Virus record (IMG/VR): IMGVR_UViG_2713896908_000004 | Origin: a virus | Taxonomy: Duplodnaviria; Heunggongvirae; Uroviricota; Caudoviricetes | Reading direction: 5' to 3' (one strand) | Length of the DNA stretch: 14,162 nt | Shown here: one piece after another, positions 7,601-10,600 of the stretch | Numbering within the stretch: the first letter of the stretch is position 1 | Layout: each line of letters starts with the position of its first letter | Position numbers: made by a program

Positions 7601-10600
7601 CAATAACGCCCACATAAGGCGGTTTTGAGGATTACTCCGCCTGGGTTCTTTAACGTGGACTTCGTGAGGTGACTTGTCGTCGATGGGAAGTGAGAGTATT
7701 GCGTCTATGGCGTTATTTCTGATTGCTTCGTTGCGAAGCATGTATATTTGCTTCATCGAAATTCTTCTCTTTAATTCCAGCGGCTCTGATAGCTTTCATT
7801 ACTGCAATTACCGTTTTGTCTCTCCCATCCTCATAACCCATCGCATAAGCACCTTCTTCACCATCTTTCCAAAAGTCGTCATTCGATTCGGGCCAGTCGA
7901 TATCCAGTTCAATAGCTGCTCGCGATGCCTGCCACGTTTGCCAGTGGCCTTGAACATCGTCCATCACGTATTGACCACCAATATTACCGCTGCCAATTTC
8001 ATGGTGATTTTCAGGGTAACGGATAAGGTCTGAAGATTCGCCCCCACGTCGCAACCAACTTTCTTCAAACTGCTTTCTTGATTCGTCCATCGGTACTTAC
8101 CATCAGTTCAACTCACAAAACGCCACGCCATTTTTGCTACAGCGACAGGCGCAACACCGATAATCACCCACAGGAGAATGCTACCGAAAAGCACACCCAC
8201 CAGGTCTTTACCTTCGCCTACCAACCGGACAAAACAGCCAGCAACCACAATGAACGTCGCCACCATCCACATAGCACCGAGAAGCCTCAATGCAGAGAAA
8301 ATCAACTCAGCCACGATTTACTCTCCCCCAAATAAAAAGGCCTGCGATTACCAGCAGGCCTGCTATCAGCTCAGTGATGTAGATGGTCATCTTTTAACTC
8401 CATATACCGCCAATACCCGTTTCATCGCGGCACTCTGGTGACACTCCTTAAAAATCAGGTTCGTGCTCACCTTTCCTTCCCGTTCTTCTCTGGTAGCGAA
8501 CCGGTAATACACCGTTCGCCAGACCTTACCTTCGATAACCAGAAGACCTGCCCGTGCCATTTTAGCCGCGGCCTGATTTATGCTGGTTACTGTTGCGCCT
8601 GTTAGCGCGGAAACGTCCTGTGCACAGAAGCTCTTATGCGTTCCGAGGTAATGAATAATTGCCTCTTTGCCCGTCATACACTTGCTCCTTTCAGTCCGAA
8701 CTTAGCTTTAATTTCTGCGATCTTCGCCAGAGCCTGTGCTCGATTCAGAGGTCTGCCGCCCATGACAGGAAGTTGTTTTACTGGTTCAGGTATAGTCTCA
8801 CCACGGTTAATTCGTGCTGTCATACAGGTCAGTTCATCGGCAGCCTTGCGCCGTAATTCCGCGTCAGTCAGCGCATTGGCCCGCATGTTCTGGTACAGGT
8901 TGGTAACCAGCCAGTAGTGCGCGTTTGATTTCCACGGATAAGACTCTGCATCCGGATACAGGCCACGCTTCCGGCAATACTCGTAAACCATATCAACCAG
9001 CTCGCTGACGTTTGGCAGTCCGGCGATAACGGATGCTTCTTCCCGGCACCATGCAACAAACTGCCCGGGTGATGGCAGAAATGGTCGATTCTGCCGACGG
9101 GCTACGCGCATTCCTGCGTTAACCTGTTCCATTGTGGTGATCCCGTTTTCCCGGAAAGCCAGAACCCACTGGCGACGGATTTCGTTCACCTCGTTCTGGT
9201 CACGGTTAGCCAGGCTCGCCGGGAAAGTTGCCAGTAACTGGCTGAACACACCATTGATGATCTGCGCTACCTGCTGTACCTGCGGCTTTTCGTCGTACTG
9301 TTCCGGCATGTTGTTGGCGATTCGACGCATCTGCTCACGGTCAAAGTTAACCATCTGTGCGGCGATGTTTTTCATAAATCCACCCCGTAAATCCAGTCAG
9401 TGTTTGTCAGGTCGAGTTTTGGTTTGCTGGCTGTCACGCCTGCCTGTTGCTTGTTACGGTTGATTTCGAGCTGGGTCCACTTGTCGCGGAGTTTGGCCGG
9501 GCTCAGCACGTTACCGGACCAGAAGTTGTCCTGGCATGCCCAGCGGAACAGTACGCACATGTCGCGATGGTTACGTCCGTCACGTTCACGCATCAGGCGG
9601 ATATCGTTAGCCCACCCTGCAAAATTCGGTTTTCTGGCTGGTCGGAGGATTCGCCAGAATTCTCTGACGAATAATCTTTTCTTTTTTCTTTTGTAATAGT
9701 GTCTTTTGTGTCCCCCTGTTTTGAGGGATAGCAATCCCCCAATTTGAGGGATGTTTTATCCCTCGTTTTAGGGGATTTTCCCTCGTTTTGAGGGATACAC
9801 CATTCTGAGATGTTTTTATTTGGTCCAAATATGCCGCCTTGCTGCTTGATAATATTCATTCTGACGAGTTCTAACTTGGCTTCATTGCACCGTTTGACAG
9901 GTAACTTTGTAATCTCGCTAAGTTGAGAATCGGTGATTCTGTCCATTGGTTTATTCCACCCATAGGTTTTACGCAGAATGGCAAGCAGCACTTTAAACTG
10001 TCGCTTGGTCAGATCTGCGCCTGAATAAGCCTCAAGCAGCATATTTGATAGTCTGGCGTAACCATCATCGAGATCTGCCACATTACGCTCCTGTTCGGCA
10101 AAGTTACCTCTGCCGAAGTTGAGTATTTTTGCTGTATTTGTCATAATGACCCCTGTGGATTGATCCAGTAATCCCCTCAGAATTGCATATCAATTTGCTT
10201 AGAGTCCCCGGCGGCCACCGGGGATTTTTTCTTTGTGATTCCATCAAGCACATACTTAAAAGCCCTACTAATCGGACTGATGTCTGATGCCATTCCGAAA
10301 GCACACAAGACCGAAGCAATAAACCGCCAGTCCGTTCTGCTTATCTTCGATTCATGACAGCCAATCATCTTTGCCAGACCTCGCTGTGTAAGCGTTGACA
10401 GGTTGATGAGTAAATCTGTTTCTGCGCGATCAATTTCTCGCTGTGTTGGCTTGCTGTAACTTGCTTGTGCCATTTGTTAATTTTCCTATATTGATATGGA
10501 GTTATAGCGGCATACCCAGTGGATTTGCCGCTGATGTTTGCTCACCCGGTTAGAGGTGAAAGGCCAGAACTGTTAAAGAGCAATTTACTTATGCCGCTTG

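Follow-up and report, generated by a model that had tools for sequence, protein, structure and literature searches.

The window analysed here, a stretch of 14,162 nucleotides, is the complete 14,162-bp contig BBWC01000028.1 of assembly GCA_001515045.1 in reversed orientation. In supplementary table S1 of Ooka et al. 2015, BBWC01000001-53 is assigned to Escherichia albertii strain K7756, a human symptomatic isolate of clade G1 from 2009, whose draft genome was sequenced on MiSeq at ~120x and assembled with Platanus 1.1.4 (PMC4700944). The contig contains the early region of a lambdoid prophage. Its gene order starts with gam, kil and cIII, followed by Nun-like and N-like genes; continues with a P22-type repressor gene, cro and cII and then O, P and ren; and closes with nin genes, an LpxR gene, Q, three tRNA genes and a holin gene. 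The genes at the contig ends are common to lambdoid prophages. The genes beside O are all full length, show near-complete coverage of their family profiles and are as long as their lambda counterparts where comparable. Features outside the replication genes were as follows.

1545-1776, minus strand: three neighbouring tRNA genes, Met(CAT), Arg(TCT) and Thr(TGT), with Q and a TfpB-like gene upstream of them
4003-4962, plus strand: LpxR-family lipid A deacylase gene (GC 0.39), between the gene for a NinI-type phosphatase and Q, on the opposite strand
11820-12466, plus strand: N-like antiterminator gene with the arginine-rich motif GTAKSRYKARRAELIAERR, then directly a full-length Nun-like gene
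13674-13732, plus strand: lambda cIII thermoregulator RNA element (RF01804, 88.5 bits), adjoining the cIII gene

The LpxR-family gene is probably cargo of the prophage. The tRNA cluster and the holin gene are separated by an ORF-poor stretch of 1.28 kb (window 265-1545, GC 0.39); a comparison with 50,697 phage records returned no match to this stretch except for the last 66 bp adjoining the holin gene. In Stx phages, the stx genes occupy this slot. The N-like and Nun-like genes stand side by side on the K7756 contig, and the product of the latter, a Nun-like transcription termination factor, matches phrog_5632 (E 4.5e-71). We take the arginine-rich motif of the N-like protein to be of the phage-21 type. 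In HK022, Nun stands in place of N.

The replication genes and the origin occupy the following positions.

8674-9375, minus strand: intact P gene (233 aa, PF06992), of the same length as lambda P
9372-9647, minus strand: out-of-frame O C-terminal remnant, ARKPNFAGW...GVDL, corresponding to lambda O residues 212-299
9593-10144, minus strand: truncated O ORF of 183 aa, consisting of lambda O residues 1-172 and 11 out-of-frame residues, ending in TGA
9629-9640, minus strand: single surviving copy of the 12-bp repeat CAGCCAGAAAAC, the deletion junction
9673-9711, minus strand: AT-rich unwinding region of ori, identical to lambda
9712-9796, minus strand: four ori iterons, ITN1-4, identical to lambda 39034-39118 (annotated positions of J02459)

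The 183-aa ORF opens at the ATG at 10144 and ends with ...SGESSDQPEN-RILQGGLTISA-stop. The Phage_rep_O DNA-binding domain (PF04492) was detected at aa 22-115 of this ORF (E 5.9e-36), as in lambda O; that is, the ORF comprises the DNA-binding domain and the linker, and it has no C-terminal part in frame. The frame ending at 9372 encodes ARKPNFAGWANDIRLMRERDG...GVDL and is shifted by -1 relative to the N-terminal frame. It is open from O nt 390, which gives an overlap of 163 nt with the N-terminal frame. Gene callers gave only the last 73 aa of the remnant (9372-9593, from Met227), and the ATG of this 73-aa ORF overlaps the TGA of the upstream 183-aa ORF (TGATG). P follows immediately downstream, its ATG overlapping the stop of the O C-terminal frame (ATGA). 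The N-terminal domain, the embedded origin and the downstream P expected of a lambda O-type initiator are all present, and the C-terminal P-interaction domain is out of frame with the N-terminal domain. An earlier note, made from the sequence of the window alone, had described O as split over two frames and had held that a full-length O could not be made without frameshifting. The ORF listing, with its 183-aa ORF and the other frame ending at 9372, agrees with the former statement, and the ORFs together with the alignment to lambda O agree with the latter.

The window O gene (10144-9372, minus strand) was aligned with lambda O (J02459 38686-39585). The alignment has 900 columns and a single gap of exactly 127 columns, indicating that exactly 127 bp are missing from the window; nucleotide identity outside the gap is ~98%. 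The gap edges fall in a 12-bp direct repeat, CAGCCAGAAAAC, located at lambda O nt 505-516 and 632-643, and the missing segment corresponds to lambda 39190-39316 or to any equivalent register within the repeat. The repeat is present twice, 127 bp apart, in lambda and in the related contig L016 described below, and once in the window. Both copies are also carried by L005 and L006, two loci with other O lesions. Both endpoints of the deletion therefore lie in the repeat and one copy is left, as expected for a deletion between short direct repeats. The 28-nt junction was found at a single position of the window, and none of 200 shuffled sequences contained it. The deletion takes codons 173-214 and one base; thus, the frame shifts, a stop follows after 11 foreign residues, and the 299-aa protein of lambda is replaced by a truncated product of 183 aa. 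The alignment confirmed the deletion size and the repeat endpoints, and with them the view of the earlier note that roughly 127 bp, not a multiple of three, had been lost between short direct repeats. The repeat that the note had placed at the junction is present; it had been given as a 10-bp sequence, GCCAGAAAAC, and the exact repeat is 12 bp long.

The origin, which lies within O, is not affected by the deletion, which begins ~32 bp past the end of the AT-rich region. O nt 349-500 match lambda exactly; this stretch includes all four iterons and the AT-rich region as well as the palindrome that surrounds the EcoRI site. The sole nearby difference from lambda falls on nt 348, one base ahead of iteron 1. 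The iterons and the AT-rich region are therefore unchanged, as had been suggested. The K7756 locus is like lambda in these origin elements, in the overlapping downstream P and in the N-terminal PF04492 domain. Apart from the missing 127 bp and the shortened product, it is unlike lambda in that the immunity region of the K7756 prophage is P22/phage-21-like.

We searched for an intact O carrying the variant of the window next to the first repeat. An IMG/VR contig (L016) was found, which encodes a normal 299-aa O; no intact O with the C variant of the window was found in the GTDB representatives. L016 and the window aligned in two collinear gapless blocks, 4,105 bp at 99.85% and 7,721 bp at 99.57% identity, which overlap by the 12-bp repeat and are 127 bp apart in L016. 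Over these 11.8 kb, the two sequences differ by 39 SNPs, located mainly in ren, and by no indel besides the 127-bp deletion. Between window positions 8795 and 9829, across nearly the whole of P and the greater part of O, the window showed no mismatch to L016 apart from the deletion. Because L016 is nearly identical, has an intact O and differs in length only by the deletion, the deletion is recent and derived; a long-domesticated prophage does not fit such a lesion. The 14 kb of the contig, beyond which the rest of the prophage lies, displays neither several lesions nor the loss of a module, which would be expected of a decayed prophage. The comparison points to a recent event in O rather than to long-term decay or co-option. 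The term 'domesticated', which the earlier note had applied to this prophage, is not supported: the near-identical L016 has an intact O, the neighbouring genes are full length and the exact 183-aa protein of the window is on record for this one contig only.

The distribution of the junction was assessed with a 28-nt pattern in which either base was allowed at the flanking SNP and with a 40-nt query designed to prevent seeding by an intact O. The junction had no match in the GTDB species representatives or in IMG/VR, and it was found in 0/5,426 complete E. coli genomes and 0/50,697 phage records. The same junction was present in L004 (Logan assembly of SRR8733916), whose cI and cro are of the lambda type, and in six similar places, as well as in L013, one metagenome contig. 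The 183-aa protein of L004 was on five contigs. Across the O-P region, the window differs from L004 at 45/1471 positions and from L013 at 25/1013, and L004 differs from L013 at 43/1013; the SNPs located 4 bp to the left and 11 bp to the right of the repeat also differ among the junction carriers. Since the carriers differ in O-P and L016 provides an intact counterpart of the window haplotype, the simplest reading is that the deletion arose independently on two or more backgrounds. Alternatively, one old deletion allele may have been reshuffled by recombination. We consider the junction to be probably a rare, repeat-mediated and recurrent deletion. As the same deletion is found on different haplotypes, the two repeats would form a small natural hotspot for the knock-out of lambdoid replication. 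This recurrence of an identical repeat-bounded deletion on different haplotypes is the only mildly new point of the locus; the K7756 O gene is a real but ordinary pseudogene, produced by an ordinary kind of prophage-disabling mutation.

These data sets also bear on the possibility that the K7756 chromosome has an intact O and that the deletion exists only in the output of the assembler or in a subpopulation of the culture. An assembler could introduce it through bubble merging or gap closing between near-identical prophage copies. The source is a MiSeq/Platanus short-read draft, the 14.2-kb contig ends in genes common to lambdoid prophages, the exact truncated protein is on this contig alone, and the flanks are 100% identical to the intact sister L016 over ~1 kb, the deletion aside. 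The short-read draft and the single contig with the exact protein thus leave some room for an assembly or clonal-culture artefact. However, the same junction was assembled independently from other data sets and on other haplotypes (the L004 group from Logan/NCBI and the L013 metagenome contig), and the coverage of the K7756 genome was ~120x. In our judgement, a 12-bp repeat is far shorter than assembler k-mers and should not give a false join. An artefact is therefore unlikely in K7756. The presence of the same junction on two further O-P haplotypes shows that this deletion occurs naturally and not just in a single assembler run.

Deletions between direct repeats arise through replication slippage or through annealing after resection. 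We infer that the two 12-bp repeats misaligned and that one copy was lost together with the intervening DNA, either by replication slippage or by single-strand annealing after resection; the prophage's own Red-type functions would be one possible source of annealing. Hairpin-assisted slippage was considered and rejected, as the fold of the single-stranded inter-repeat DNA had a z of -1.47 and 17/200 shuffles folded at least as well.

The consequence for the protein was assessed from the domain organisation of O. According to PMC6022878, O has an ori-binding domain at its N terminus and a P-binding domain at its C terminus, joined by a flexible linker in which small in-frame deletions are tolerated; alleles without the last 5 or 35 C-terminal residues are null in complementation tests. 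Distant PHROG families (O-like, DnaD-like and replisome-organizer) aligned to lambda O residues ~153-299, indicating that the deleted stretch lies in a conserved domain and not in the linker only. The 73-aa remnant alone matched only the last 45-75 profile positions of these families. A search by sequence for solved structures of O returned none, and the homologues of the 88-aa C-terminal remnant were O fragments of 49-151 aa only, with no full-length protein among them. The truncated product would bind the iterons and, without the P-binding domain, would fail to bring P-DnaB to the intact ori. As P-DnaB would not be recruited, the induced prophage is not expected to initiate replication by itself. 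The preferred reading is that a recent 127-bp deletion, caused by repeat misalignment, inactivated O and that the prophage cannot replicate by itself; we assign it a probability of about 0.8. On the basis of sequence comparison, the loss of prophage replication is the most likely outcome, and the earlier description of the prophage as replication-defective is well supported by inference, because the whole P-binding region is gone and losses of just 5 or 35 C-terminal residues are null (PMC6022878). Only 14 kb of the prophage is on the contig; therefore, the defect could be complemented by a second O with matching specificity at another place in the genome.

PMC6022878 also describes a setting in which O is lost. 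Induction of a non-excisable lambda prophage kills the cell via replication, and in the cells that survive, O or P has been altered by small deletions or insertions. The loss of O would accordingly be predicted to spare the host cell from replicative killing by a prophage that cannot excise; a selective benefit is not obvious, because P expressed without O is itself toxic (PMC6022878). It is nevertheless conceivable that the retained N-terminal fragment has a function, namely to block co-resident or superinfecting phages with lambda-type iterons or to spare the host replicative killing. The DNA-binding domain and the iterons are intact, the same deletion is found on three haplotypes, and O loss is selected when the prophage cannot excise, as in the setting above. 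However, O is located in the pR operon downstream of cro and cII. This operon is repressed in a lambda lysogen (PMC6022878), so the fragment would appear only after induction. In addition, the allele is very rare, being absent from all 5,426 complete E. coli genomes, the toxicity of P without O would persist, and the repeat alone accounts for the recurrence. The analysis turned up no support for an inhibitory role, and we regard a function of this kind as highly improbable. The same slim chance applies to the broader proposal that the O repeat pair is a recurrent off-switch for prophage replication and the N-terminal fragment a trans-dominant inhibitor of phages with lambda-type iterons. If this were true, carriers would be protected from replicative killing and would also exclude related phages at the level of replication.

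It is hardly credible that the locus still provides a working initiator, either as a fusion produced by -1 ribosomal or transcriptional frameshifting or as a two-piece O produced by termination-reinitiation at TGATG: the 163-nt two-frame overlap contains an A6 run followed by a rare AGA codon, the stop of the N-terminal ORF overlaps the ATG of the 73-aa ORF and O tolerates small in-frame linker deletions (PMC6022878), but at least residues 173-211 would still be missing from a frameshift product and residues 173-226 from a two-piece O, and the lost segment aligns to conserved positions of the distant O-like and DnaD-like families. Moreover, the two-frame arrangement is not conserved, as L016 and the best-matching phage records listed have a continuous 900-bp O, and the junction is absent from IMG/VR and the 50,697 phage records. 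Both routes were also examined as candidates and rejected. No X XXY YYZ slippery heptamer was found in the N-terminal frame across O nt 390-552, where the overlap offers only the A6 run and AGA, which argues against programmed -1 frameshifting. No Shine-Dalgarno sequence was found before the internal ATG of the 73-aa ORF, which is tied to the upstream ORF by the TGATG overlap only, and residues 173-226 are absent from both pieces, which argues against reinitiation. For the same reasons, and because no phage record carries the junction, the 'split O' offered by the earlier note as an alternative to a defective prophage is not supported.

Loss of O through a recent repeat-misalignment deletion has counterparts among laboratory mutants of lambda. 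The RK- 'ilr' mutations of the Hayes laboratory are small deletions and insertions in O recovered from survivors of non-excisable prophage induction (PMC6022878). The ilr alleles and the K7756 O gene are alike in having out-of-frame O lesions with ori and P intact and in the abolition of O function, which is a prediction in the case of K7756. The ilr alleles are laboratory lambda isolates, whereas the K7756 allele is natural and occurs in E. albertii; the available text of PMC6022878 contains no mention of the 127-bp repeat-bounded O deletion. The ilr mutants offer a plausible selective setting for the K7756 lesion (PMC6022878). The Rambach r mutants r93, r96 and r99 carry small deletions inside O that stop lambda replication; according to the same paper, these are in-frame losses of 12, 15 and 24 bp that fall in the iterons or the AT-rich region. 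That is, the r mutations disable the site, whereas the K7756 deletion spares the site and disables the protein.

The lesion matters mainly for annotation, in which the gene is best marked as an O pseudogene and the K7756 prophage treated as probably unable to replicate by itself. Such a replication defect would bear on the inducibility and the spread of cargo, e.g., the LpxR-type lipid A deacylase gene, and the junction could act as a simple sequence marker for defective prophages of this type.

Broken O genes of other kinds were also observed. The 73-aa C-terminal ORF, from Met227 to the end, appears as a gene call of its own on at least 72 contigs. The loci fetched for this ORF contain several distinct lesions within ~40 bp of the same site, all ending at the same TGA. 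L005, L006 and L007 (about 2955-2990) carry a T4-to-T3 change just after the second repeat; L008 has a different small frameshift just upstream of this site, inside the second repeat copy; and in L011 a short tandem duplication breaks O. The T3 allele was found in 81/5,426 complete E. coli genomes and in 0/50,697 phage records. In the one genome with this allele that was examined, the gene is annotated as 'replication protein, frameshifted' and lies in an IS-flanked remnant in which only O and P survive. Judging by the occurrence of the T3 allele in 81 of these genomes and in no phage record, a frameshifted O is familiar in chromosomal prophages and unseen in isolated phages. These frameshifted 'replication protein' pseudogenes share the TGA and the 73-aa C-terminal ORF with the K7756 O gene; they result from 1-bp homopolymer changes, whereas K7756 has a 127-bp deletion in an otherwise intact-looking early region.

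Two protein families and two records with a longer O were also noted. phrog_2365, an N-terminal family of 232 positions, and phrog_2357 seem to derive from the two halves of O genes that are split in phage records; phrog_2357, a family of 124 positions labelled 'unknown function', corresponds to lambda O residues 177-298. In H38 (PV189402.1) and H51 (NZ_CP148427.1), O spans 939 bp compared with 900 bp, implying an in-frame insertion of 39 bp.
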